Assembly: GCF_964194025.1 (NCBI RefSeq)
Contig: NC_134472.1
Span: 27,094,001-27,158,000 of the forward strand
DNA from: Convolutriloba macropyga
Taxonomy: Eukaryota
DNA length: 64,000 bases
Direction of reading: 5' to 3'
In this document: one piece after another, positions 8,989 through 49,500 of the stretch
Layout: the number at the start of each line of letters is the position of its first letter
How positions within the stretch are numbered: position 1 is the first letter of the stretch
Made by a program: the position numbers and the translations under genes
The notes under the pieces: model-generated
Databases searched by the model: none
Told to the model about the DNA's origin: nothing
What the model saw: only the letters and a program-made list of their open reading frames with translations

Positions 8989-9525
8989 TTGTGATGGTCT
9001 TTTCTTACTGTAACGAAGTATTTTACTCTTCTGTTTAGACATTTGAGACTTGAAGTTTGTGTTTGATCTGAAATGTTTTTACCCGCCAATTGTAGACATT
9101 AATTGGAAAATATATTTTTTAATTCAATTCTGTTTTATTGTAAATGGCACCAATGAAGAAATTGGCCGTCGAAAAAACTAATTCGTAGTCAAATCGCTCA
9201 AAAAGCAATTGTTTATCAACAATTTTGCGCTCTGGCAGTGTTATTAAGTTTGTTATTATAGTCCTGCGGTCGTCTTTTAGCGATTTTTTGGGATAAACGG
9301 GTAATGCCCTGAGGCCATTTATCACAGCAGCTCTTTTAGAGTTCCACTATTCTCTAAGTGTACAGTCCCGCACTCTCGCAAACACCTAACGCGCCCCTTA
9401 CTGCTAGTCTCTCTGAGTCCGAATTGGTTACTGCCAAAGGCAACCGCTGACCGGTCGTTTCAGAGCAATTCGCTCAACGTTAGTTGGAGAGTTCATTTTT
9501 CTAGATTTTTTTTCATAATCTCGCT

Positions 9526-9668
9526 AGTAGTGGATAAAACAGGGCTTCCAGCCACCAGCAAAATTTGACCCTTTCTCCAAGCGCTAATCACGCATGTCGA
9601 ATCGGGCCAAATTTTACTGATTTCTGGAAGCCCTGTTTTATCCACTACTATATGTTAGCTCTAAATTT
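9526..9668. repeat. Left TIR, containing a 124-nt hairpin (9526-9649)
   Basis: 9526-9551 AGTAGTGGATAAAACAGGGCTTCCAG is the exact reverse complement of 9624-9649. Confidence 0.95.
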
Positions 9669-9797
9669 GATAAAATTAAAATTATTATTCTATGAATTAG
9701 TCAAGAATTGTTTTCTTCCCTTATTTATTCTAGATCTAGCATCTATTAAGAAAAAAAGGAATCAATATACTTCTCATATAAATTAAAAGAAGAAGAA

Positions 9798-10115
9798 TTA
9801 GTTTATTTGAATATTATACTTATAAACATGCTCTCTGAATTGATTTCTAGTGTGACCATATCTATATCTATGAAGATAAATACATAGTCTACATTTCCTA
9901 TTTCTAAATCTATATAATGATATATGTTTATAAACATTACACATACTACACGTTAGATATTGATCAGGATCAGAATAATGATATCCCAAATGTTCTATAT
10001 AATCTTTCACTTTGACCATATTTTTACATACATAACAAGAATATTCTAATTCTTTACAATTATCACAACATTCTTTCCAAGGTTTATTTATGCATTTATT
10101 GCATTTCATTTTCAT
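9798..10115 (-). CDS. Small Cys/His-rich (zinc-binding) Polinton protein
   Basis: 105-aa ORF with several CxxC pairs and a CxxC...HxxxH; divergent from pPolB. Confidence 0.55.
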   Translation of the reverse strand: MKMKCNKCINKPWKECCDNCKELEYSCYVCKNMVKVKDYIEHLGYHYSDPDQYLTCSMCNVYKHISLYRFRNRKCRLCIYLHRYRYGHTRNQFREHVYKYNIQIN

Positions 10116-10160
10116 TTTTCGGAAAATTATTTTTTGATTATTTCCCTAAAAAATTACATC

Positions 10161-13100
10161 ATGTCTCAGTCAACAAATACTAATGTCATAAACTTCTGTG
10201 ATGTCTGTAATTTATCCTTTGAATCAAAGAAGGCTTTATACAGGCATCAATCATACGATCTCAAACATAAGGAACTATTGGAGAAAATGTTTGAGTCTGA
10301 AGAAGAGGAAATCTCGGAGAGGGTGTATAATTTGGATGAAGATGATTATATTATTAAAACTAAACCAGCCACCAATCCTAAAACTAAAACTGAAGAGGAT
10401 ATCTACACCAGAATTAAGTATGAATGTAAAGAATGTCATGAAGAATTTAGAAGTAAAGTAGCTCTAACTACTCATTCATATAGTCACAATCGCATGTATC
10501 TAGAAAACACAGAATACTTCGATATAAACTCAAGTCAGAACATGAGAGAATTTTATATTACTGATAAAGCTGGGAATTACATTGAAGATATAGATGAAGC
10601 AACTAATTACTCTTTAGAAGAAATTAAAAACTGTTACCAGTTTCGTAAAGTTAAGAGTTTGAAATATAAGATGACGGCTGAATGTGATTATAAGAAGAGA
10701 ACCAAAGAAGAAGTTAAAACTACTAATATATTTTTCAATACTGATTATATTAATAATAATGCAATATATGAATATGGTGACTTCAATCGGTGGCTAGATT
10801 TCGAAAAGGAAATATATGAAGGTTATGGTTATGATTTTGAGTTTCTTGGAATAAGAAGTATCCAGTTAAACATTGAACCAACTAAAGCATCTATTGGTAG
10901 TTATATAGATTTACCTCCTGATCTCAAAAACTCTAAATCGATATTAAATATACGTAGTTATAAATACAACTGCTTACAACTAACTATTACTGCTTGGCTA
11001 CATCCCGCCCCACACCATGCAACTCGAGAAAGTAAATATGTAGATAAACTAATTGAACCAAGACAACAACATGAAGATGATTTTGCTTATATAATAAGAA
11101 TACAGAAATTGTATAATGTTAATATTTGGATATACACACCTTGTGGTAATGGTAAAATAGAATTGTTTAAACAAGTGGATGATTTTGATAAAGATAGAAA
11201 AGATGTAAGAATACTAGTTTGGAGTAATGGTCAATTAGAACACTGTGCCCTAATAAAAAATATAGAAACCTTGTTAGAACGACCAAATAAAAACAACATT
11301 AAATATTATTATTGTGATAGGTGTACCTATTGGTTTAACTCACAAATTAAATTTGATAAACACGAATGCAGCACCTCATTCAAACCAGAGATTGTTTGTC
11401 CTAAGAAAAAACATATTACTTTTGTAAATGAACACAAACGTCAGAATATAAAAAATATTATAACTGCCGATATAGAATGTTGCATTGTTGAAGTCTCAAC
11501 TAATGACTGTAAATATGTAATAGCTGAACATATTCCAATAGCTGTGGGTTACACCTGGCAAGGTAACTTCAAACACTACTTCGGTCTAGGCTGCATCAAA
11601 AGATTTGCTAGAGATCTATTAGAAATAGAAACTGAGAATAATTTCAAACATAATGAAAAGATGATATTCACAGAAGAAGATAAATTATATCATGAAACTA
11701 ATAACACTTGTCATATCTGCAACAAAACATGTATTAATAAAGTAAGAGATCATTGTCATGAAACTGGTAAATATAGAGGACCAGCATGTAAAATATGTAA
11801 TCTAAGATACAAACAACAAAGTTTCATTCCAGTAGTATTCCATAATGGCTCTGGCTATGATTTCAATCTGCTATATAGTGAACTCTTCAAACAATAATGA
11901 TAAAAGAAAAGTAGATAACATACCACTAGCTGCTGGTGAGTCTAAGATGTTTAGCATTGGTTGTCTGAAATTCTTAGATAGTTATAACTTCTTAGCTATG
12001 CCTCTAGATCAAATGGCAAAGATATACGGATGTAAAACTAAAACATTATATCCATATGAATACTTTGGTTTAGACTCCTATAATAATCTTATAGGTAATG
12101 TTCAAAAAGAAGACTTTAAATCCTCTCTACATAATAAATTACCAACACAAGAGGAAGTAGATAATTTTAATAATGAAAACAGTCATAAAACTGGAAATTA
12201 TCTAACTATAGAGTATTTACAGAATGATGTGGAAATATTAGACTATTGCATGAATGAGTATGTTAAACTAAGTATGAAAGAATTCAAGCTCAATCCACTA
12301 CATTACGTTAGTCTCCCGGGTTATAGTTTTGATTGTTGGTTAATGTCAATCGGTGTAACATTAGATACATTACAAGATAAACAAATGCTAGATGATTTTG
12401 TTGGAGCAAAGAGAGGTGGTATATGTGGAATAATGGGTGATAGATATATAGATAACAGTGATGGTAAGACCATATGGTACATAGACGCAAACAAACTATA
12501 TGGTTATGCAATGATGCAAAAGTTACCTTATAAGGACTTCCAGTTTACTACTACTACTCTAGATCCGCGAAGCGGGTTCCTCGATACAATATTGAATACT
12601 CCAGATGATAGTGGTCATGGTTACTATATAGTTTGTGATATTGATTATACTAATGAATGTAAAGAGAGAACAGAACAGTTAGCACTAATACCTAATAAGA
12701 GAAAGATAAATGATAATGAATTGGGATACCGACAAAGAGAGAAAAGTAAAGCAAGATCCGAGAAATTAATCTTAGACCAAAACAACAAAACAGAATATAT
12801 GGTTCATTATAGGATGATAAAGTTCTATGTTAAGATGGGAGTAAAAGTAACAAAAATACATAGAGTAACTAAATTTAAACAAGATCATATATGTAGAGAT
12901 TATATACAAAACAATACAAATAAAAGAGCAACAGCTAAAACTGAAGCAGAAAAGGATGTAAGGAAATTAATGAATAACTCATTATATGGAAGAATGTGCA
13001 TGAATCCTCCACACTTCTTTCAAAGCAAGTTCTTGCATGAAGAAGAAAAGATAATGAAAAGTATAAGTAAACCAACATTTAAGAATATAACTAGATATAA

Positions 13101-13825
13101 GGATTATAGCCAAATGGAATATATAAAGAAAAAAATAGAATATGATTCTCCAGTATATGTAGGTGTTACTATCTTAGAATTAAGTAAATTACACATGTAT
13201 GATGTATTCTATAATATTCTACAACCATCCCTCAAAGATCTAACACTTCACTATATGGATACGGACAGTTTCGTATTAAGTTATAGTAAAGGTAAAGTTA
13301 GTGATGAGCATATGGACTTAAGTAATCTAGACATACCTATAAAAACTAATAATAAAGTCCCCGGCAAGTTTAAGCAAGAGCTGGGAAGTAGGATTATTGA
13401 GGAATTTATAGCATTGTCCCCCAAAACATAGCTTCAAAAATTATCCTAAAAACACTAAAGAAAAAGGAATAAAGAAGCATAATAATGCTATGCACATAGA
13501 TTATTATGATGCATTAATGAATAATACACAGAGAACAGTAGATGAATGTAGAATACAAAAAGGTGGTGATAACATGACAACAACAAAAACAAGTAAGATT
13601 AGTCTAAACACATTTGATGATAAAAGATTTTTTGTAAATAATATTAAAAGCTATCCTCATGATGAGAATCTATATCTATGCAAAAGAGAATTAATAAAAA
13701 TGATCCGCCAAGCATCATTAGATGGAGACAAAGACCTACTGGTTAATAATATTCTAGAACTAACCATTAATGATGATAGAAAGTTAATTGAAGTTGCTAT
13801 TATATTATATAATGAGCTTTGTTAA
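10161..13825 (+). pseudogene. polB: Protein-primed family B DNA polymerase (pPolB), two frameshifts (about 11890 and about 13430)
   Basis: N-terminal C2H2 fingers; ExoI TADIE; EndoVII-like CHIC..VRDHCHETGKYRGPAC..CN; FHNGSGYD; FLDSY; YIDANKLYG; KLMNNSLYG; YMDTDS; KISLNTFDDKRF. Confidence 0.95.
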
Positions 13826-13841
13826 TTTTTATAACAAATAA

Positions 13842-14162
13842 TTATAGACTTAATTCATTCATTACATCCATATGGTTGGTAGTTAGTATATTATAAATCA
13901 TTATCTGAGCAATATATTTTTCCATAATGTCTCCCATGATTGTATTCTTATATAGTGTAGCTCCAGCTATTATATTTTTATTATATTCTAGAAATTTTAT
14001 TATCTTCTTAGCCCCATCTACATATTTAGAATAAGTTGAAATTATTAAATCATCATGATTTGGTTCCTTAATATGATCAATAAACTCATCTATAGTATTA
14101 CAACGTCTTTTACAAGCTAAACATCTTTTTAGATTAAGAGAGAAGCTGTTTTCATTATCCAT
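13842..14162 (-). CDS. Hypothetical Polinton protein with a C2H2-like motif
   Basis: 106-aa ORF, CLACK...HIKEPNH; AAAAAATG start context; divergent from the 14199 ORF. Confidence 0.5.
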   Translation of the reverse strand: MDNENSFSLNLKRCLACKRRCNTIDEFIDHIKEPNHDDLIISTYSKYVDGAKKIIKFLEYNKNIIAGATLYKNTIMGDIMEKYIAQIMIYNILTTNHMDVMNELSL

Positions 14163-14198
14163 TTTTTACTCTTATTATAAATTTTCAATACATATAAA

Positions 14199-15101
14199 AT
14201 GACTAAACTAGATAAACTTATAGAATTAAACAATCTAGAAAAACAAAACAGAAGAAATAGATTAGAAGATAAATTAAAACAACAAGATTATTCTGGTGAA
14301 TTAGAAGAGTTTTTCGATCCTTTAACTAAAACTATCAGTGAAACTGCTTCGCAGATAAACGCAAACAATGAACAGAATCTAGCATTAAGTGAACAAACAT
14401 TAAGAGCAATAGATTGGCAAAATCAAGAGTTAGATAAACAAACTAAGATGATCGAGCAAGCTGGTTCCCAGTTTAATGAAACTGCTTCCAAGATGGGTGA
14501 AACCGCTTCGCAGATTGGTGAAACGTTAAAGGGGACCATAAAGCAAACTCAAGATATAGCACCAGTTTATGTTGATACAAAAACAGCCAAACTTCTTCAT
14601 GACATGGGGGCTCAAACTAATCCTCAATTAAAATTAGAACTCGTAGATTTACCTAGTAGGAGATATAAAATGAATGGTGTTGATATAACTCTAGAGCAGG
14701 GTGCATTTTTAGTTAGGGATAATGTATATGAGTTTTCAGAAGGATTTACTGATTTTCTTACTAAAACAAATGTAACATATGATGATAAGGTTGAGGAAGA
14801 TGAAAACAAAATTAAAAGGTTTTTAAAGGATATTAGATATGATGTAGGAAAAGGGGATAAGAAAAGCGCTAGATATAGAACAATAAAACGTATAATGGAG
14901 GTAAGAGATGATATATTTGGCAGGGGATTAAATGGCAACCCAAATAATTTAGTAGAAAGACTAGAATTATTAATACTAGAAACAAAAGCTGGTCATGATG
15001 GGTTATATGATGAAATGCTAGATATATCTAAGCAACTATTATCTATGAATATTATTAATCAAAACCAACAAGATAATTTGGTTTTTAATTATGGTAAATA
15101 G
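14199..15101 (+). CDS. Polinton-associated coiled-coil protein
   Basis: 300 aa; C-terminal GRGL..NPNNLVERLELLILETKAGHDGLYDEM resembles a motif recurrent in animal Polinton ORFs (from recall). Confidence 0.7.
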   Translation: MTKLDKLIELNNLEKQNRRNRLEDKLKQQDYSGELEEFFDPLTKTISETASQINANNEQNLALSEQTLRAIDWQNQELDKQTKMIEQAGSQFNETASKMGETASQIGETLKGTIKQTQDIAPVYVDTKTAKLLHDMGAQTNPQLKLELVDLPSRRYKMNGVDITLEQGAFLVRDNVYEFSEGFTDFLTKTNVTYDDKVEEDENKIKRFLKDIRYDVGKGDKKSARYRTIKRIMEVRDDIFGRGLNGNPNNLVERLELLILETKAGHDGLYDEMLDISKQLLSMNIINQNQQDNLVFNYGK

Positions 15102-15254
15102 GTGAAACCATGACTACGTCCATGAGGGAACCTGCTTCGCAGATTGACCTGCGGTCCTAAGTCTAATTATAATTCTTAGTCTAATTGTAAGACTCATTAT
15201 AAGTCTAATTACAAGACTAATTATTATTTTAATTATATGTAAACAAATACAAAG

Positions 15255-15980
15255 ATGACAAGAAATAGATTCAATCAAGCTAAACATAAATCAACATCAA
15301 CAAACAACTTGACACTAAGTAAGGCTCGTGATTTATTCCTAGAAGATAATGATGATATTGATATGAAGGATACCTATAAAATTACAAATGTTCATCCTCC
15401 TAGAGATGAAAAAGATGTTGTTAATAAAGAGTATTGTGACAATAACTTATTATCCTCTTCTAATAAAATCGGTGAAACCGCTTCGCGGATAGACATTTTA
15501 AGTAGAAACATAACTGAACTAAGAAAGGGTGACTTTGATAAAGTTACAACTAAAACATTACAACTAAATGAAACACAAGTTAATGAAGAACTAATTAATG
15601 AGTTTATTGAATCAACAAATGAAGTCAGAAATACTGTTAAGTTTTGTAATAAAGTTGCTGCAGATACTATCTCTAAATATAATCAATTAAAGCAAGAATT
15701 TGATAATAATAAGTTTAATCAGAATATAACTAACATACACTTAGATGAAATGTTTGCTAACGGTCTGAGAGAAATGAAAGAATACAATAAATCTCTTAGA
15801 GGTGTTATAGTACAATATATAATTGCTATACTTTTACAAAGTAAGTTACTTGATAATAAAGAGAAAGAAAGACTTGAGATGCATTATAGTTTTAATCAAG
15901 AAGATATAATGAAAGAAATAGAAAGAATTTTTACTAATGAAATTAAGCAAAGCAATGACCAATCCAACAGCACCGAGTGA
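15255..15980 (+). CDS. Hypothetical Polinton protein
   Basis: 241-aa ORF; ITNVHPPRDEKDVVNKEYCD resembles a fibre/adhesin-type repeat; coiled-coil remainder. Confidence 0.55.
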   Translation: MTRNRFNQAKHKSTSTNNLTLSKARDLFLEDNDDIDMKDTYKITNVHPPRDEKDVVNKEYCDNNLLSSSNKIGETASRIDILSRNITELRKGDFDKVTTKTLQLNETQVNEELINEFIESTNEVRNTVKFCNKVAADTISKYNQLKQEFDNNKFNQNITNIHLDEMFANGLREMKEYNKSLRGVIVQYIIAILLQSKLLDNKEKERLEMHYSFNQEDIMKEIERIFTNEIKQSNDQSNSTE

Positions 15981-16540
15981 GAGATTACTATATCCAGATT
16001 TGTCATCAGTATCAGAAAGATTGATACGCGAAGCTGCTGCTTTCAATGAACAGCAGATAAACGAAAAGATTCAAGCTAATAATAAATTTAACAACAATAT
16101 TAACATTATAAAAGATATTAGAAATTATTATGAAACTGAAACTAATAACTATAATAAGAAGTTAAGTAGATATAAGAATTATATTGACATAGCTGAGATA
16201 ACAGAAATAGTATTATCATCAATAGCAACAATTGCAACAACAACATCAGTTTCATTAACAGGTATAGGATTAGCTTATTCTATACCAACAGCTTTTGCTA
16301 CAGCAACTGTTTGTGGTTCATTATCAAAAACAATTAATACTAAAATTAGAAATAAAATTATATAGTATTCACAAATGTAGATTTTAAGTAAACAGTTTAG
16401 TGATAAGTTTAATAAACTATATACTAAATCAATGAATGATAATAAAATAGATAATGATGAGTATAATGACTTTGTTAAGTTATATGAGGATTATAAGAAG
16501 AACAAGAAGAATAAGTTGAGTATTTTTTTAGATTAAAGAT
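15937..16540 (+). pseudogene. Membrane-associated Polinton protein (hydrophobic hairpin), with premature stops
   Basis: IVLSSIATIATTTSVSLTGIGLAYSIPTAFATATVCG; frame continues past TAG at 16363 and 16378 into ...SMNDNKIDNDEYNDFVKLYEDY. Confidence 0.6.
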
Positions 16541-16722
16541 ATTAGTGCTTAGTAATAACAATGTTTTTAGTAATAATAATATTAGTTTTAATATTTATCC
16601 GCGAAGCGGTTACACCGATCGATAAATATATAATCATAATCTTAGTTATAATCATAATCATAAACATAATATAATCATAATATAATCATAAACATAATAT
16701 AATCATAATTATAATCAAATAA

Positions 16723-17142
16723 TTATCTTTTCTTTGTACCTAAGTATAACCCTCTTCCTTTTTGTACTACTTTTATACCTTCACCAGTAGTAGCAAATTT
16801 AATTAAATCAGGTGTGGCTGATAAAGCAGCTCTAGGGTTTCTAGATGCAGCTGCACTTCCTATTTTACTTGCTATTTCTAATGCTCTTACTGGATTATTA
16901 GCTACTTTCTTTCCAAAGTTAACTGTAGCCCTACCAACACTGTTAAAGAAATCTCTAAGTCCTTCTGCTTCTATTGTTGCATCAGATACTGTCATTGATT
17001 TATTCCTTCTACATAAAACACAATTACCTTTTAACATCTTAGTTCCTTTTGAAGTAATAGCTCCTCTTATATTAACAGTACCACTATAATGTCTACCTCC
17101 AACACAATATGAATTAGTTTTGAACTTATTTAAAAGACTCAT
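16723..17142 (-). CDS. Basic core-like protein (DUF5679-like Cys motif plus amphipathic helix)
   Basis: YCVGGRH...GTKMLKGNCVLCRRNKS, then EAEG-LRDFFNSVGRATVNFGKKV and C-terminal KGRGLYL. Confidence 0.65.
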   Translation of the reverse strand: MSLLNKFKTNSYCVGGRHYSGTVNIRGAITSKGTKMLKGNCVLCRRNKSMTVSDATIEAEGLRDFFNSVGRATVNFGKKVANNPVRALEIASKIGSAAASRNPRAALSATPDLIKFATTGEGIKVVQKGRGLYLGTKKR

Positions 17143-17160
17143 TTCTTTATATAAAAAATA

Positions 17161-17328
17161 ATGGAAGTTAAAAAGTATAATCCTTTTGTTGTTATTAAAC
17201 CCAAGCCTAAGCCTAAGGTTAAGCCCAAGCCCAAGGTTAAGCTTGAAGCTAGAGGTTTGGCTCTAGAGAATAAAAAGAAATTAGACATTATTTATGCTAA
17301 AAGTTTTGTTAATACTAATAAGAAATAG
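17161..17328 (+). CDS. Small Lys/Pro-rich basic protein (55 aa; below ORF-track cutoff)
   Basis: Manual translation MEVKKYNPFVVIKPKPKPKVKPKPKVKLEARGLALEN...; preceded by TATATAAAAATA; divergent from the 17142 ORF. Confidence 0.5.
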   Translation: MEVKKYNPFVVIKPKPKPKVKPKPKVKLEARGLALENKKKLDIIYAKSFVNTNKK

Positions 17329-17446
17329 TTAGGTATTAACAAGAGTAACAATTAGAGCTGACTAGCTATAAATTTAAGTACAAGTATATGGTTATGTATA
17401 AGTATAAGTATATAATTATGACAATAACTATATTATACTATAATTA

Positions 17447-17565
17447 TAAATTATCGCTAGAGTTATATCTAAAATTATAATTATCGCTAGAGTTATATCT
17501 AAAATTATAATTATCGCTAGAGTTATATCTATGACTTAAATTATATCTATGACTTAAATTATATC
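17447..17565. repeat. Minisatellite (about 29-bp unit x3, then about 19-bp unit x2)
   Basis: ATAATTATCGCTAGAGTTATATCTAAAAT repeated, then ATGACTTAAATTATATCT repeated. Confidence 0.85.
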
Positions 17566-18809
17566 TATGATATTATATCAACCATCTTATTACCATCACT
17601 ATTCAAACTAATAACCTTTCTAGTTAATACTAATGCATGACATATAACATCTGCAACTGCAGCACTAAATTTAAAATTAAGTTGTATTGGTTGTGGACCT
17701 ATATGATCACTTTGATATCTAGTATCAAATACATATATTCTATAACTACTCTTGAATGTTCTATGATTTATATATGGTTTTATATTATGTGGTAGCCCAT
17801 TATAATCTTTATTAAAGCTAACAATCTCTTTAAAAGCCTCATTATAATTATTGGTTCCATAATTAATATTCTTTCTATCCTCGGGATAAAACTCACTACC
17901 AATCTTACAATAACATTCAGTAACATTCATTACATCAAATGTACTTGCATCATGAGTTTGTTCATTAACATTATTATTTTCAAAACCAACTATTATATAT
18001 TGCGGTCTTTCCATACCACTTTCCGTACCTAGATCAAACAAGAAGTTAGTAGCATTGGGTACATTCTTATAAAATGTCTTTCTTTCATAATAACTAAAGT
18101 CTACATTATTCTTTTTATTTAATCCTTTCTGCACAATAATTCTATTATCATTACTAGGATCAATACTAGGTACACACCATGATATATCTCTAATTTCTAT
18201 ATTACCATCATTGGCAACTGCACCACGATTAGCATTAACTCTATATAGAGCTCTCTCATTATTATTCCTTTTTAATATTAGTTTAAATCCTAAACCATAT
18301 ATAATCTTTTCTAAATCATTTACGAAACCAAATAGATCACTCATCTTAATCATCATATACATATGTCCTCATTGTGCAGCAATATGGTCACCTTTAAGTT
18401 GACTATCTCTATTGCCCTGATTTCTAACAAAACCACTCTCATATTCATCACCAGTACTAGTTAATAACTTATACATCAATAGATTAGGATGACAATGATC
18501 TATATATTCAATATTCCTACCACCACTAGTTTCAAGCTTAATTGAACTAAACAATGCCATCATACCATAATTACCTAATCTAATATTAGCATCATTAGCA
18601 AATACACCACCAGCATCATCTGATACAACAAACTCTATCTCTAGACATGAATCACGCAAATTTAAGTGATTCTCTTCTCTATTGAGTATGATATCAATAT
18701 TGTTATTAACCGTATTCATTGTTGCTAGATTATTAGGTTTATATTTTATAATCTTACTTTTATGTATATCATTATTATAACCATAAGTTGTATCCAAACT
18801 AAAATCCAT
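17565..18809 (-). pseudogene. Double jelly-roll major capsid protein, frameshifted at about 18365
   Basis: Two ORFs (18369..18809 and 17565..18362): DSCLEIEF, ALFSSIKLETSGGRNIE, RPQYIIVGF, KIGSEFYP, IYVFDT; about 415 aa combined. Confidence 0.85.
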
Positions 18810-18825
18810 TTTTATTAGATAAAAA

Positions 18826-19668
18826 ATGACAGACAACTTGATTTTATATGAACTACAAAATATACACGAAGCTTTAACTAAAACTAAAAAAGAGCATACA
18901 CTTAACTTTAGAATGATAAAACCAACAGAAAAGTTTAACTTTAGTGAACCTATACTTAATACAACAAAATTAGGTTTAATTAGATTATCTGTTTATAATT
19001 CGGTGTTTAATGTGAATAGGAGAAATAATCAATTCTTATATGCTAGTACTGTTATAGAAGATGATGAAGCTTTACCTCGGGCTCTTATCTCTGACCCTAA
19101 CCTTAACCCTATCTCTACCTCAAGCCCAAACATTACATCTATACTTAATCATAATTATAAAGGAATCCCGTTGCTATATTCAACTATTACACCGGGAGCA
19201 TATGAGTTAACTGACATAGCAGAATTAATAAAAGAAGAAACTGATGGTAATGTTATAATAGAACCTGATAAGAATACGATGAAATGTTTAATGGAAATAA
19301 AACAAGGAGTAATCAGCTTTGATATAGAAAACTCACTAGCCTCCTTACTAGGATTTAGAAAAATAATTTATAAAAAAGGTAGATATAAATCTCAGAAAAT
19401 TATTGATATTATGGGTTTTAGTACTATTAACATTCATTGTAATGTGATATCTGAAGCTAAAGATAATGGTAAAGAGGCAGACATACTATATACTTTTAAT
19501 CTAACTGAACCACCAGGTTACTTGATAAATATTATACCAACTAATATCTTGTATCCAAATGTAACTAAAGATAGAATAGAATATATTGAATTTCATATTA
19601 AAGATGAGCATGGAAGACCTATAGACTTTAATGGTGATGTATTAAGTTTTACTTTACATCTGTGTTAA
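18826..19668 (+). CDS. Single jelly-roll minor capsid protein (penton)
   Basis: SVYNSVFNV, ITPGAYEL, SLASLLGF, INIHCNVI, IEFHIKDEHGRPIDFNGDVLSFTLHL. Confidence 0.85.
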   Translation: MTDNLILYELQNIHEALTKTKKEHTLNFRMIKPTEKFNFSEPILNTTKLGLIRLSVYNSVFNVNRRNNQFLYASTVIEDDEALPRALISDPNLNPISTSSPNITSILNHNYKGIPLLYSTITPGAYELTDIAELIKEETDGNVIIEPDKNTMKCLMEIKQGVISFDIENSLASLLGFRKIIYKKGRYKSQKIIDIMGFSTINIHCNVISEAKDNGKEADILYTFNLTEPPGYLINIIPTNILYPNVTKDRIEYIEFHIKDEHGRPIDFNGDVLSFTLHLC

Positions 19669-19798
19669 CAACTTCGTTGATCTGATTTACACTTACACTT
19701 ATCTGCGAAGCAGGTTCCTCGATACTTGTACTTACACTTATCTACGAAGCAGGTTCCCTGATACTTGTACTTAGACTTAGACTTACACTTAAATTAAA

Positions 19799-20600
19799 CT
19801 ACAAAACTCTCCGATCCCAATTAATTCTTAGTTTACCATTAATATTTTTATTTTTAGTTATATCAATGACAATATAATTATAAGGCTCTTTCCATACCTT
19901 ATTACATATATTAGCAAAATCATTATAACTAAGTTCAACATTATTAAAGAAATCTTGATATATAGATATGAGGACTTTACCTCTCTGTTCAAATAAAATA
20001 AATAGATTACAGTTCTCTCTAACACTCTGCCTATCCAGAGAGAACAGGTTTTGATTAAGATATATCATATTACGTCTATATAACAGTTATTATGTCTACC
20101 TCTACAAAAGTATTCATTAATAACTGGTTCTTTGGCTCTAACATCATCGAATATCATTAGTTTCTTTAAATCTTTGGGTAGTTTATCGGGAGATGGTGAA
20201 TCTTTTATATCTTTAATAGATTCAACATCTGCTTTTGGGTTTATTCTTTCTATACCATGGTACTGATCACCAGTAGGTCCAATGATGTATAGCTTATCAA
20301 AGTATATACTAGCTAGAATTAGTTTTTAATAAGAATGTCTTACCACATTCTCTAGGACCAGATATTATACATCTAAAGTTATCTGGGAATGCGGCTTCAG
20401 TAATTATATCATCATTTAGCCATGAATATAGATCTTCATTTATTTTTACAGATATCGGTGAAACCGCTTCATGGATATTATTAGTAGGACTATTACTAAT
20501 GCTATTACTATTGCTATTCCTATTATATTTACTCCTTTGATATTTTTCATCAAATAGATATATAAAATTAACTCTATCATTATCATTATCATTATAATGA
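19799..20600 (-). pseudogene. A32/FtsK-like packaging ATPase 1, two frameshifts
   Basis: Walker A IISGPRECGKT; manual translation of 20160-20083 gives LMIFDDV...YFCRGRHNNC; then IYLNQNLF...VRENCNLFILF. Confidence 0.88.
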
Positions 20601-21122
20601 TCTACTTCGTAGATCATTAACATTATCATTATCACTATCTGTATCACCACCTCTTCTACAATTCAAACAAAAACACTCATTATATATTCCTGGATATTTA
20701 CATTGATTAACTAGAATATTCAAAGCACTTTTAATTCCAAATCCTCTATAAATAAGATAGATCATATATAAACAATAAGCCCCACAATAAGATTCATCAA
20801 ATTGTTGTATTCTCTCATTAGAGCCTAGATCAACATATTCTTCTAAAAATAAAGGTGGAGTTTCTACACCAAAACTATCGAAGTAATATGTTGGACCACC
20901 TTCTCTTCTTATAACTAAAACCCAATGTGTACCTTCAGTTGGATGTAGATTTACAATAATGTTAGAGTTAGTTTCACTTACCATTTCTGGTTTATCTCTC
21001 ATTACAATCTCAATTGGTGTTAGACTTATATCTTTACCTATATCTTTTATTCTGATATCACTCATAGCATTATTATCAATATTAAATTTATTATTGAATT
21101 CCTCAAAAGTTAGGATGAGCAT
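20592..21122 (-). CDS. Adenain-like cysteine protease (virion maturation)
   Basis: IVNL..GTHWV, YYFDSFG, RIQ..ESYCGAYC (His/Asp/Gln/Cys catalytic set). Confidence 0.92.
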   Translation of the reverse strand: MLILTFEEFNNKFNIDNNAMSDIRIKDIGKDISLTPIEIVMRDKPEMVSETNSNIIVNLHPTEGTHWVLVIRREGGPTYYFDSFGVETPPLFLEEYVDLGSNERIQQFDESYCGAYCLYMIYLIYRGFGIKSALNILVNQCKYPGIYNECFCLNCRRGGDTDSDNDNVNDLRSRSL

Positions 21123-21196
21123 TTTTATATAATAAATTTATTAAATCTAAGTCTATAAGTCTAAATCTAAATCAAATCTATATTTATTATATAAAA

Positions 21197-22853
21197 ATGG
21201 AAACAGGTAGTGCAGTTTTTATTTTTATTATTATAATTGCAATTTGTTATATAATATATGATTCAAGACCAAGTAAATATACAAAACTAGAAGAAAGCTT
21301 TGGTGGATTTATGAATAGGAGTCTAGTTAGATTTGAATATGAAAAGTCACCACTACATACTATTGTTTATGGTGGAACTGGAACGGGTAAAACATATTTT
21401 ATTAGACAATACTTAAAGTTATACTTAGACCATGATCAAGTTCAAGATCAAGTTCAACATCAAATTCAAGATCAAGTTCAACATCAAGTTCAACATCAAG
21501 TTCAAGATCAAGTTCAACATCAAGTTCAAGATCAAGTTCAACATCAATTTCAAGATCAAGACCAAAGGTCCATAGTTATAGTTTGTAAAGATGACAGAGA
21601 CTGGATAGATCCTGAGTGTAATAAGTTTTATACTGGGTTTAATAAATGTGATATAAATATGATCACAAAAAATAATATGCATAAATTACAAAATTGTGTA
21701 ATAGTACTTGATGATATGGGTGATAGGTTAAATAAGGATATAGGTTATTATTTTACTGAAGGTAGACATTATAATATTCAAATGATTGTAATGTGTCATA
21801 AACCAGCTCAAATAATTAATACAGCAAGAATGAGTTGTGATACTATTTATTTAACAACTTTTATTGGACCTGACCTATTTAAAAACTTTAATGAGATATA
21901 TAAATGTGAACATGATTTCAATAAAATAATTAGTGAATTAAATAGTAACTATTATAATTGTATAGATGGAATGTCAGATGAACTTCGTTATGGTATAATT
22001 AAATATAATAAAAAGGAAAATACTTTTATTATTATTAGTAGTAATAGAACAATGATATATGATTCAAGAGTTGGTTTCCTTGATTTAAAAGCTCTTAGTT
22101 TAAAAGATGATTTAGAAAGAGAAGATATAAATAAACTTATAGCATATATGAAACCACTAATGATTAATGCAACAGATAGAAATGTTATTAATCATGATAA
22201 TTATCAGTTTTATTTTAATAAACTTCTTACTTTAAATAATATTAAAATTCAGAATGATGTTTTAACAAAAGAGATGATTAAAGGAAAGGGTATGAAAATT
22301 TTATCAAATATTGGTGGAATTATAGGCACAGGTTTATTTTTATTTAATTGTTTTTATCCTGATTCAATATCAAGAAATGCTGGAACTGTAGCAATGGGAG
22401 CAAGCACAATGTTGAGTAGAGTAAATACATTAGTTAATGTTGGATACGGAGTTGGAAGGTGAAACACGGACAAAGTCCGATTCCTCGATCTGCGAAGCAG
22501 GTTCCATGATCCAAGAGGAATATATAGATCAAGGAAGCAGTTATACTGATCAGTGTAACTGTGACTTCGTCAATGAAGAGATGGGAATTTTGAATAGAAA
22601 GGGAGGAAAGTTTTTAAACAAACTATATATAAATAATGAAGAATTTAGAGAAGAGATTATAAATTTTGTTAAAGATAAAAAAGAATTAGACCTTGATTTG
22701 ATCTTAGATAAGAGATGTAAAACTAATACACTCAATACTTTAGGAAATAAGTATTTAGCAGAGTGTATCACATCTAAAGATAATACTAAAGATTTAATTG
22801 AAATCATGGCTAAATATTATCCACGAAGTTTGTACACCGATTCTACAGCATAG
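21197..22853 (+). CDS. Second A32/FtsK-like ATPase with N-terminal TM segment and Q/D/V/H repeat; frameshift at about 22450
   Basis: HTIVYGGTGTGKT, VIVLDD, FTEGRHYNIQMIVMCH, ARMSCD; hydrophobic AVFIFIIIIAICYII; continues as 22437..22853. Confidence 0.85.
21430..21562 (+). repeat. Hexamer-period coding repeat (CAAGAT/CAAGTT/CAACAT)
   Basis: Encodes (QDQVQH)n. Confidence 0.9.
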
Positions 22854-22925
22854 CTAATATTATCTGCGAAGCAGTTTGGTAAACCACGAACAAAGTTCGT
22901 TCACTGATAATTTTATCTATTCAAA

Positions 22926-23561
22926 ATGCTTTTACAATGTTTAGAGTGTAACTATAAATGTGGAAACATTGCTGTTTTAAAATATCATTATGAATCATTT
23001 CATAAAGATAAAACTGATAAATGTATGTGTGGTAATATAATATTAAGTGGTATTTGTGCTAATGATTTTTCCCCATGGGGTTGTTCTTTAAAAAATGAAT
23101 CTAGTTCTAGTTCTAATTCTAGTTCTAACCCTAGTTCTAATTCTAGTTCTAACCCTAGTTATAATTCTATTTCTAACCCTAGTTCTAGTTCTAACCCTAA
23201 TTCTAACTCTAGTTCTAACCCTAGTTCTAGTTCTGGTTCTAACCCCAGTTCTAGCTCTAGTTCTGGTTCTGGTTCTATCTATGACTATAACTCTAACTCA
23301 GATCCTAACCCCAACCCTAACCTTATCCCTAACCCTAACCTTATCCCTAACCCTAACCTTAACCCCAGCTCAGAAGTATTAACTAGATGTTGTAATAAGT
23401 GTAATTATATAAAACCACTAAATAATTTTGATGAGGGTAAGTATACATGTAGAAGTTGTACTTCAGCTAAAGTTAATTGTCCATATTGTACTTCTGTTGT
23501 GAGATATGGTGGGATACGGGCTCATGTAAAGAAACAACATCCAGATATAGAATTGACTTGA
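22926..23561 (+). CDS. Zinc-finger protein with Ser/Asn/Pro low-complexity linker
   Basis: CLEC..H..H, CNKC..CRSC, CPYC..HVKKQH; TCTAGT and CCTAAC repeats at 23100-23366. Confidence 0.65.
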   Translation: MLLQCLECNYKCGNIAVLKYHYESFHKDKTDKCMCGNIILSGICANDFSPWGCSLKNESSSSSNSSSNPSSNSSSNPSYNSISNPSSSSNPNSNSSSNPSSSSGSNPSSSSSSGSGSIYDYNSNSDPNPNPNLIPNPNLIPNPNLNPSSEVLTRCCNKCNYIKPLNNFDEGKYTCRSCTSAKVNCPYCTSVVRYGGIRAHVKKQHPDIELT

Positions 23562-23979
23562 GGATTTAGTAGAAATATAACTGATCGGTGTAACCGCTTC
23601 GGGGATAAATTAATTAATCCTAGTTGGCTAAGTCCTAGAGCTGTAAGTCCTTTAGTTATTAACCAAACAGAGGAAAGTTGTTCATGTAAATACTATAATT
23701 TTGTATCATTTCTTATTAATAATGGAATAAATATAGAAAAAATAAAAGAAAATATAAATTTATTGAAAAGTATAGATAATTTGAAATAAAAAGTATAAAA
23801 AAATTTAAAAAATATCAAAAAAGAGGGATTCACTCTTTAAGAGCGAAAAAGAGCGATCTTTTCTACTGGGGATCACTCCGAATAAGAGTGAATCACTCTT
23901 AAAGAGTGAAATGTAAATTTTGCTTTGATTTTTTGATTTTTTTTGTTTTTATTTTGGATTTTAATTGATTTTTTTATTG

Positions 23980-24121
23980 AATTTAGAGCTAATATATAGT
24001 AGTGGATAAAACAAGGGATTCAAAAAACAGTAAAATTTGGCCCGATTCGACATGCGCGATTAGCGTTAGGAGAAAGGGACAAATTTTACTGGTGGTTGAA
24101 TCCCTTGTTTTATCCACTACT
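23980..24121. repeat. Right TIR, containing a 124-nt hairpin (23998-24121)
   Basis: 23998-24023 AGTAGTGGATAAAACAAGGGATTCAA is the exact reverse complement of 24096-24121. Confidence 0.95.
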
Positions 24122-24421
24122 CTCGCTCGATGTTTAGTTGCAGAAGTGATGGAAAAGAAATCATCAGCAAACAGTTCAGCAATCTCGATAATTGAAAAGA
24201 AAATTTAAAGCGTAAAAATTGAACTCTGATTTGTACGATCTAACTGTATCGCTATCGCATAATTTCATTAATTACATTCATGAGGAAACTAATGAACTAT
24301 TAAACAAAATTTTTGTGTTATGATCAGGTACTTAATCAAACTAAAGGCTGGTTTCTGTAGAGGCAAAACAGTCCAGAGTGCCATTCTAAGTAAAACTAGG
24401 GTTGCTGTTCTCTCTATTCAT

Positions 24422-47900: not shown

Positions 47901-49500
47901 AATTTTATATCGACTTTTCCTCAACGACGTCGCTAAAAAAGAATTTGAACAATGTTGCTTGCCAAAACACCTCTGGAAGGAAACACTCTATCGAATACAA
48001 AATTCTCAAATAGCATTGAAATTACAAGAGTTCCGAAGACGCTTTTTTCCCTGGATTTACAAAACATCTTATTGATTTCATCAAAAAATGTTTTCCCTGT
48101 CTGCAGCTAAAACAACTTCGAGCTAGTTCGATAAAACCACCGTTATAGCAAATATCTTCACGACAGTCATTTCCTGGAGATATGTTACAAATTGACCTTG
48201 TAGGGACATTTAACTCGCCTATATAAAAGTATGTCCTTAGCGATATTGATGTGTTCACAAAATATCTTTTCGCAGTACCCCTGACTAACGGCATCGCAGA
48301 CACCATTGCAAGAGAACTACAGAGCATTTTCTTCGATCATAGTTTTCTGCCAACAACAATAGTCTCGGATCTTGGATCAACCTTTGTTTCGGACTTGATG
48401 ATTGAATTTGCCACAATATTAGAAGTGAAGCTTAAGCATGCAACCTTGAAGCATCCACATACAACAGGGGCGGTCAAAAGATTACACGGACCCTTGAAGC
48501 GTATACTACGGTTGAAGACAGACGAACGATGGACAAATTGGCATATATGCCACCAGCCACTTTTATCCACCATACATCTTATCATACTTCCATCGCATGC
48601 TGCCCTTCAACCTTGTTCCATGGCCGCGAACCAATTAAACCAACTGTCCCGCGATTTGCACGAGCTAACAGGGACGTAATTGGCATTAGCTCAATCTATG
48701 TAGCAGAACTACAAGATGCAATGCAAATAAAATTCGGAGAAAATAAACTCAGCCGTTTGGATTCATACCATCGCTACCGAAGTTTTTATGATGAAAAAGC
48801 ATTAGCGCACCCATTAGAAGAACAATTCTATTGCCTGCTATTGACGTCAAAGCTAACAAAACAAAGCGAATCAATTGGGAAGGCTAAGAAAAAATGGATA
48901 CCACTTTACAGCTTAGAAAAGGTACTGACAATTTCTAATTACATTGTCCACAAAATTGGAGTAAACTTCACACAATGTGTCCACAGGATTAGGCTACGAC
49001 CAGTGAAAAAAAATCAAAAGCTGTTGAAGGTCTCGAGATTATCGATTCATCAAACTTTGTCCCCGACCCATCAAGAAAATACGGCAAAAGCGAGCCCGAG
49101 TTATTTGATGACTATGTGCCAAATCTGTTGGAAAGCGAGTTAAAAAAAAAAACCCAAGTTACACCAATACCACCAGCCGAAGTTAGCCTATCACTTGCTT
49201 TTGCACCTCCAACACGTCACCGGTACTATCACCACCTGCACTAGTAGCATTACCACAACCCCCCCCCCCCCCCATAGCAAGAGTTTTATCAGTTCCTTCA
49301 CCGGTAACACCTAGAGTTATTCAGCCACTAAATTGGAGAGAGATGGCACCAACAATGGAAAAAAAGTCCCAACGAAGAGCCACAGGATACGTCACACAAC
49401 TTTGAAGATCAGAACGAGACTCCAATACCGGGAGTATACGACAATAGGCCACAAGAAACGGACAAACGGACTTATCAGTTGGACCAATAACAAGATCAAA
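44997..49500 (+). pseudogene. pol: pol (protease, RT, RNase H, integrase), fragmented
   Basis: IDTGA; LDLRRIN, KLDCSQAYH, LMDDIG; RH LRDA...HTPGKANYAAEFLSR; IN IDLVG, DVFTKY, IVSDLGS. Confidence 0.92.

Follow-up and report, generated by a model that had tools for sequence, protein, structure and literature searches.

In a stretch of 64,000 nucleotides (nt) of the Convolutriloba macropyga genome (assembly GCF_964194025.1, contig NC_134472.1, positions 27,094,001 to 27,158,000 of the forward strand; hereafter the window), positions 9526-24121 are occupied by a Polinton/Maverick element whose terminal inverted repeats (TIRs) each fold into a 124-nt hairpin. It was revealed that a whole family of elements has this hairpin as its TIR, and that the two ends of the window copy are of two different arm types, which were likely joined by recombination. 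I consider it moderately probable that protein-primed replication starts on the hairpin itself, which, at the 3′ end of the displaced strand, would offer a local duplex origin and make matched ends dispensable.

Hairpin structure of the two ends

The element lies between target-site duplications (TSDs) of 6 bp that match perfectly. The arm types are defined by positions 17-26 of the hairpin: type A is found at the window copy's left end and type B at its right end, and types C, D, E, and F were distinguished in addition. The terminal features of the window copy are as follows.

9520..9525, no strand: left 6-bp TSD, same letters as 24122-24127
9526..9649, + strand: left terminal hairpin, arm type A, 124 nt
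9526-9551: outer arm of the left hairpin
9552-9555: one side of the internal loop (4 nt)
9556-9567: second stem
9568-9607: weakly paired 40-nt tip
9608-9619: second stem
9620-9623: other side of the internal loop
9624-9649: inner arm, which is the outward-pointing second terminus
9650..9667, + strand: TIR continuation at the polymerase end, 18 nt, matching 23980-23997 at 17/18 positions; the kind of flank that carries A hairpins
23980..23997, - strand: TIR continuation at the far end, 18 nt; the kind of flank that usually carries B or C hairpins
23998..24121, - strand: right terminal hairpin, arm type B (outer arm 24096-24121, inner arm 23998-24023)
24122..24127, no strand: right 6-bp TSD, same letters as 9520-9525

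The initial annotation, made from the letters of the window alone, had drawn both TIRs as 124-nt hairpins with a 26-bp stem, a 4x4 internal loop, and a 12-bp stem. Both ends do fold into such hairpins: the folding energies of the four strands range from -40.8 to -48.6 kcal/mol (z-scores from -11.8 to -15.9), and none of the 200 shuffles made for each strand was as stable. Each end has a perfect 26-bp outer stem followed by the 4x4 internal loop, the 12-bp stem, and the weakly paired tip. The second stem is perfect at the right end only, and that of the left end contains one mismatch (34/91); thus, the stem plan is exact for the right end and needs a correction for the left end. As had also been noticed, the ends differ from each other and yet each pairs with itself: the five differing stem positions (17, 20, 21, 23, and 26) are all matched at the paired positions (108, 105, 104, 102, and 99, respectively). 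A second, oppositely oriented terminus inside each end was likewise confirmed, as the terminal 15-mer occurs exactly four times, twice per end, with the inner copies facing outward (0.2 occurrences are expected by chance at two or fewer mismatches). In the window copy, the inverted match between the left and right ends extends about 18 nt beyond the hairpin.

Hairpin ends across the genome

With a pattern covering both tips, 817 exact hairpin ends were found in the host genome of 1.18 Gb, and the size of the family is about 400 copies or more. Type A is rare, with about 58 of the 817 ends, an approximate share as the two counts come from different patterns. Among 12 type representatives, both partners have changed in 7 of the 26 outer-stem pairs and a single partner in none, and 0 of 500 shuffles reached this covariation score. 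This test is partly circular and is taken as supportive only, with no probability attached, because the representatives were chosen as self-matched ends and because related sequences can beat the control. The expectation that the hairpin is conserved and covaries within ends was supported by these counts.

Two divergent TSD-bounded elements, with polymerases ~70-80% identical, retain the fold, but their loops are different. Across divergent families with differing loops, the fold persists in imperfect form at 118-126 nt, and the internal loop remains unpaired across families. In copies that have one common type of flank, the two ends share only a few bases past position 124, so that the TIR is essentially the hairpin itself. 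Of the 12 representatives, which are related and not independent sequences, 10 show the more stable fold (by 3.9-12.1 kcal/mol) on the strand ending in the 3′ terminus.

Is this end type confined to the present genome? Contigs of three other organisms cover the hairpin region at 80% identity or more, so it is not. No relatives were found in metagenome contigs by tblastn. In viral contigs, the terminal 15-mer gave 77 single matches, and an inner inverted copy was present in none of the 77. Two odd sites were seen in the host genome, whose contigs are numbered from C1 here. C1:4117367-4117492 is a 126-nt hairpin that is very divergent but shares the 16-nt tips, with ~20 kb on either side of it free of Polinton genes, and C10:20707031 is a terminus-like site that has neither a hairpin nor a partner and was not used as an outgroup.

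Unlike ends and recombination between subfamilies

An unbiased set was built from the exact ends of contig C1 (all 46) and of contig C2 (the first 4), whose partners were fetched to give 29 candidate pairs. The 27 pairs with a TSD of at most one mismatch were kept and the other 2 left out; for 3 ends, the partner side lacked a full hairpin. There was no shared difference among the four arms in 20 of the 27 elements. Four elements have sites that differ between the ends and are self-paired in each, two of these being A at one end and B at the other like the window copy, and three elements show the same mismatch between outer and inner arms at both ends. A second set of 30 TSD-matched elements was selected, not drawn at random, for containing type A (2 rows with poorer TSDs were dropped); here, as elsewhere, end classes were tallied by hand. 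It comprises 14 elements with an A/A and a B/B end, 1 with an A/A and a B/C end, 7 whose ends are both A/A, and 8 in which one end is an A/B hybrid. Four further elements with clear TSDs consist of two with A and B ends and two with A at both ends. Unlike-ended elements are common, with perfect TSDs and patchwork interiors.

The interior of the window copy is a mosaic, since its identity to ten other copies swings between ~80 and 99% along its length. On the polymerase side, its flank clusters with elements whose two ends are both of type A, and on the far side with mostly B/C elements. The same combination of flanks is found with A at both ends at C8:67584191 and C9:46000340. Because the flanks group with different elements and the identity is mosaic, the window copy is likely, and most simply, a recombinant of two subfamilies whose ends have not yet been homogenised. 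This was the third option raised by the initial annotation, and it is the most likely one, given the common A and B ends and the mosaic interiors. A single clonal lineage of unlike-ended elements was not supported, as these elements are spread over several clades for either end (many forks are weak, and the bootstrap is unsettled in one tree).

Copying between and within ends

Correction had been proposed to act within each end instead of between the ends. Some copying within ends is real, as described below, but the "instead" did not stand. Each of the 8 elements that have an A/B hybrid end carries, on the hybrid, the same outer arm as on the partner end, and in 5 of the 8 the shared outer arm is of type A. 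Since this type is rare (~58/817), a random donor is unlikely. The hybrid tracts end after the outer arm in four cases and after the loop in four, and both directions occur. As for B/C hybrid ends, of which there are 21, 10 of 14 paired elements have the outer arm in common with the partner. This tract pattern is what tip-anchored copying in a panhandle would leave, and end-to-end copying contradicts correction acting within ends only. The unbiased set points the same way, with its 20 elements lacking a shared arm difference and its 3 elements carrying one mismatch at both ends. A panhandle step has been proposed for the protein-primed replication of adenovirus and PRD1, although direct evidence is still lacking (PMC11886824).

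Two further patterns were seen in the hybrids and their neighbours. The B/C hybrid ends are skewed 19 vs 2 to the combination of a C outer arm and a B inner arm, which may be a lineage effect or polarity. A change at position 7, which lengthens the terminal triplet repeat, is present in both arms in 4 ends, in the outer arm only in 3, and in the inner arm only in none; two of the both-arm cases are otherwise hybrid ends.

Within single ends, it was found that the internal loop has been erased in 8 cases: 5 have the outer side of the loop on both sides, 2 have the inner side on both, and there is 1 more. Each of these ends requires two or three specific changes, and the partner end was normal in all six cases checked. 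For the two ends copied from the inner to the outer side, either the same end or another molecule served as donor, since the partner end belongs to the other type. These sequences indicate that arm-to-arm copying occurs within an end. Template switching between inverted arms is described as homogenising arms and inverting spacers without selection (PMC8604942). At C12:55080178, the inner arm is stuttered into three partial copies, which suggests polymerase slippage at the hairpin base.

Orientation of the hairpin and use of the inner terminus

The ends of adeno-associated virus (AAV) occur as flip and flop. Replication of the AAV type would lead one to expect both orientations at similar frequency, which is not what was found. 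With flank tags derived from the observed flanks, 183 of 184 ends were called in the same orientation, and the exception is a stuttered end of standard orientation. A genome-wide pattern (the inner arm followed by a base that differs from the usual one) gave 14 sites, of which 12 are ordinary ends, one is a solo hairpin, and one is an inverted end whose TSD matches; about a quarter of the inverted ends would escape this pattern, as would all those with mismatches. The inverted end belongs to C3689:32547-49991, a TSD-bounded element with unlike ends (C and B) on an unplaced contig, in which the right hairpin points the opposite way with respect to the interior; a chromosomal allele of it was not found. 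Inversion amounts to about 1 per 800-900 ends. Routine flip/flop was rejected on these counts, and the suggestion of routine hairpin-transfer replication or end inversion was not borne out. The single orientation makes symmetric hairpin transfer unlikely. Asymmetric resolution would be possible by analogy with the left end of minute virus of mice (MVM).

In one element with A and B ends, the hairpin of the left end (C15:40367263-40367491) is duplicated in inverted orientation, and 22 nt are missing from the centre. This end starts exactly at the inner-terminus copy, and its TSD matches that of the right end at 40382923. Thus, the inner terminus has become an integrated end in this one case, and no second junction of the kind was found. 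Head-to-head junctions were rejected as a common form, since the patterns gave 0 sites (with a pattern unable to match the 125-nt form) and 1 site. A composite transposon made of 124-bp units resembling miniature inverted-repeat transposable elements was also rejected, since no solo 124-bp unit with a direct TSD was present among the 184 ends and the 14 pattern sites. A solo hairpin at C6:50921207-50921330 has the outer-type internal loop on both sides and inverted, not direct, 6-bp flanks. No Polinton genes were found near it in stretches from ~21 kb before to 22 kb after (one stretch by blastn only).

Gene content of the element

The features inside the window copy are listed below, where aa stands for amino acid residues and ORF for open reading frame.

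10161..11897, + strand: N-terminal piece of the polymerase gene, with a C2H2 finger and an endonuclease VII-like domain
11845..13431, + strand: C-terminal piece of the DNA polymerase, presumably of family B (phrog_1907, DNA polymerase, E 3.2e-13)
15101..15255, no strand: site of the rve integrase in other copies, judged from their gene order; the window copy lacks the integrase
17565..18809, - strand: double jelly-roll (DJR) major capsid gene in two pieces (PF21738, E 3.5e-23 for 17568-18362)
18826..19668, + strand: putative minor capsid, a conserved 280-aa ORF labelled by position only, with no family match
20592..21122, - strand: putative cysteine protease, with a weak Peptidase_C39 match below the cut-off
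21197..22462, + strand: A32-like packaging ATPase (PF04665, E 1.7e-7, above the cut-off)
12545-12585, 14323-14358, 14484-14516, 15113-15147, 15459-15508, both orientations: dispersed repeats
16583-16620, 19691-19768, 20444-20482, 22478-22550, 23583-23610, both orientations: the remaining dispersed repeats

The polymerase gene of the window copy is split by a frameshift near 11845-11897. The endonuclease VII-like domain corresponds to aa 504-549 (~11670-11807) and was identified by Pfam (PF02945, E 5e-8) and by a PHROG endonuclease VII match. For the C-terminal piece, phrog_1907 was matched, and the Pfam and PDB searches gave no matches. That the polymerase is of the protein-primed subtype (pPolB) is my assumption from the context and from its motifs. 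The capsid gene is a single ORF of 414 aa in another copy; its homologues number 461, and among the 120 matches listed, all are PF21738. Candidate ORFs for the adenain-like protease and the minor capsid are present, none with a family match above the cut-off, and the ORF at 20592..21122 is presumed to encode a cysteine protease on the basis of a motif.

No integrase was found within the window element by tblastn. An rve integrase (PF00665, E 3.4e-8) is present in another copy, and its homologues lie at the corresponding place in several copies. Outside the element, the window has a weak integrase-like tblastn match at 48164-48424 (26% over 87 aa, E 1e-4), which probably belongs to another transposon. 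No HUH Rep/NS1 initiator family was found in a scan of 19 ORFs, which divergent forms could escape. The dispersed repeats are a family of ~25-35 nt, and some of them lie within ORFs.

In summary, the element has TIRs with a repeated terminal triplet, a 6-bp TSD, a DJR capsid, and an A32-like ATPase, together with an rve integrase at the level of the family. By its genes, TIRs, terminal motif, and TSD, it is a member of the Polinton/Maverick family, for which the repeated terminal triplet is a described motif (PMC8097293, Barreat and Katzourakis 2021).

Discussion

How might such ends work? In the reading favoured here, the 3′ end of the displaced strand would fold at once, with no need to meet the other end 15 kb away, and the resulting 26-bp duplex would be identical to the terminal origin. 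Adenoviruses with non-identical ends were reportedly viable in a report of 1989. The folding bias of the 3′ strand, the conserved unpaired loop, and the TSD-bounded unlike ends fit a local origin, and they also partly fit a signal for the integrase. Unlike-ended elements may have recombined as free DNA and then integrated as such. The two TIRs of one molecule would pair at times, and sequence would be copied from the tip inward in both directions, over the outer arm alone, the outer arm and the loop, or the whole hairpin. Template switching of the polymerase between the arms of one end may make and spread paired changes, and may rarely erase the loop or invert the end. Selection on the folded 3′ end would keep the internal loop unpaired and the orientation single.

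Several points weigh against a local origin of this kind. The element was not seen in a free, replicating, or protein-capped form; the sequencing runs were covered as assembled contigs, in which the ends of molecules do not show, and their listing contained no strand-change joints. End-to-end copying points to panhandle forms, so the hairpin may be an addition and not a replacement. A perfect stem is not essential, as the 21 B/C hybrid ends and an A lineage with a fixed stem mismatch have spread. One end at C1:12151240 has no loop and no inner arm, and one end at C4:8921122 has no 40-nt tip. The outer arm is unlike that of the partner in 4 of the 14 paired B/C hybrids, and the copying within ends could have taken place in the host chromosome after insertion. 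Finally, use of the inner terminus and inversion of an end were each seen only once, the latter on an unplaced contig.

The hairpin might instead be a signal for excision, integration, or packaging, offering the integrase a duplex end on looped-out single-stranded DNA or a cruciform, and not an origin of replication. I regard this as unlikely. It would agree with the single use of an inner terminus copy as an integration end, with the internal loop being unpaired across families, and with a published model, as described by others, in which the integrase acts on the stem formed by TIR pairing. However, routine use of the inner end predicts solo 124-bp inserts with direct TSDs, and there are none in the 184 ends or the 14 pattern sites. 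The folding bias of the 3′ strand suits an origin, but also a 3′-OH end for the integrase.

Hairpin priming as in parvoviruses is also quite improbable. In this case, the 3′ end would fold, its own hydroxyl would prime synthesis, and a nuclease, possibly the endonuclease VII-like domain, would resolve the junction. The 3′ terminus is indeed perfectly paired with the inner arm, the endonuclease VII-like domain is encoded by the polymerase gene, and there are one fold-back-like end (C15:40367263) and one inverted end (C3689). In addition, hairpin priming has been proposed for palindromic ends of virophages as well as of polinton-like viruses (PLVs) (bioRxiv 10.64898/2026.07.28.741278). A single orientation would require asymmetric resolution, by which the MVM left end is resolved (PMC1185569). 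Against this, 183 of 184 ends have one orientation, the head-to-head junction patterns gave 0 and 1 sites, and the element retains the repeated terminal triplet and the polymerase context of protein priming. Moreover, the palindromic protist elements mostly have non-pPolB replication genes (bioRxiv 10.64898/2026.07.28.741278), and since endonuclease domains are fused to pPolB in other Polintons, the domain is, as far as known, not specific to hairpin ends.

A palindrome with no function of its own, that is, an ancestral fold-back accident upheld mechanically by template switching and panhandle copying, is very unlikely: template switching can homogenise arms and invert spacers without selection (PMC8604942), the type representatives show no one-sided intermediates, and mismatched-stem hybrids have spread, but if copying were all, the loop should be gone and the tip perfect, whereas products of this kind (8 ends) stay rare and the imperfect 118-126-nt folds persist in divergent families with differing loops, and a useless palindrome should vanish, whereas only one end with arm loss was met.

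With the local origin as the favoured reading, the family can be compared with known systems. It resembles other Polintons/Mavericks in its size of 13-21 kb, 6-bp TSD, terminal triplet present twice, polymerase, rve integrase (in other copies), DJR capsid, and A32-like ATPase, and its TIR length is within the reported 46-1447 bp. It differs in that the TIR itself is a hairpin with a second full terminus and in that unlike-ended copies are common. The words "hairpin" and "palindrom" are absent from the available text of PMC8097293 and of bioRxiv 10.1101/2023.08.22.554363 (Jeong et al.); a note on palindromic Polinton TIRs in Repbase or in a subscription journal is possible. One close likeness is found in the endogenous virophages/PLVs of Halocafeteria seosinensis, integrated Polisuviricotina with 52-nt terminal palindromes in the TIR adjoining the TSD, mostly with non-pPolB replication genes, for which a replication role by hairpin priming has been proposed (bioRxiv 10.64898/2026.07.28.741278). 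In contrast, the present family is a Polinton, presumably of the pPolB type, with a 124-nt imperfect hairpin, and its orientation and conversion data speak against symmetric hairpin transfer.

Adenovirus and PRD1 share the displaced strand, the pairing of the inverted terminal repeats (ITRs), and tip-anchored copying between ends (PMC11886824). Their ITRs have no self-hairpin, and the graded conversion tracts described here would be indirect genomic evidence for panhandles. The hairpin telomeres of parvoviruses are terminal imperfect palindromes of similar size with conserved unpaired bases (MVM/LuIII, PMC1185569), whereas here no Rep/NS1 HUH protein was found in the 19 ORFs, the form is double-stranded and integrated with a TSD, and inversion is rare (~1 per 800-900 ends). 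Template switching at quasi-palindromes gives the same arm homogenisation, paired changes of several bases, and rare spacer inversion (PMC8604942), but here it would act on the termini of mobile elements, whose products can be amplified by transposition. Casposons are likewise self-synthesizing, and some of their TIRs have internal palindromes; however, they are prokaryotic, use a Cas1 integrase, and are unrelated by descent (PMC4046053). Terminal palindromes are thus already known in protist virophages/PLVs and casposons, and the present family adds a 124-nt hairpin as the TIR of a Polinton.

A bolder form of the favoured reading is tentative and rather doubtful. Each 3′ hairpin may by itself suffice as origin and integrase site, its spare terminus lying 124 nt further in. 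A damaged end may be restored through fold-back and a new cut at the inner terminus, which the endonuclease VII-like domain possibly makes. If so, the ends would be freed from having to match, halves of elements could recombine freely, as hundreds of copies show them to have done, and replication would be a hybrid of the protein-primed and hairpin-telomere modes.

Polintons are known mainly in silico. With arms that can be typed at four positions per element, this family records both processes: copying between ends that is graded and anchored at the tip, and copying from arm to arm inside one end. In addition, its unlike-ended elements lie between perfect TSDs, and an internal terminus has turned into a real end. 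Its natural 124-nt ends make the requirements of the origin and of the integrase end directly testable.

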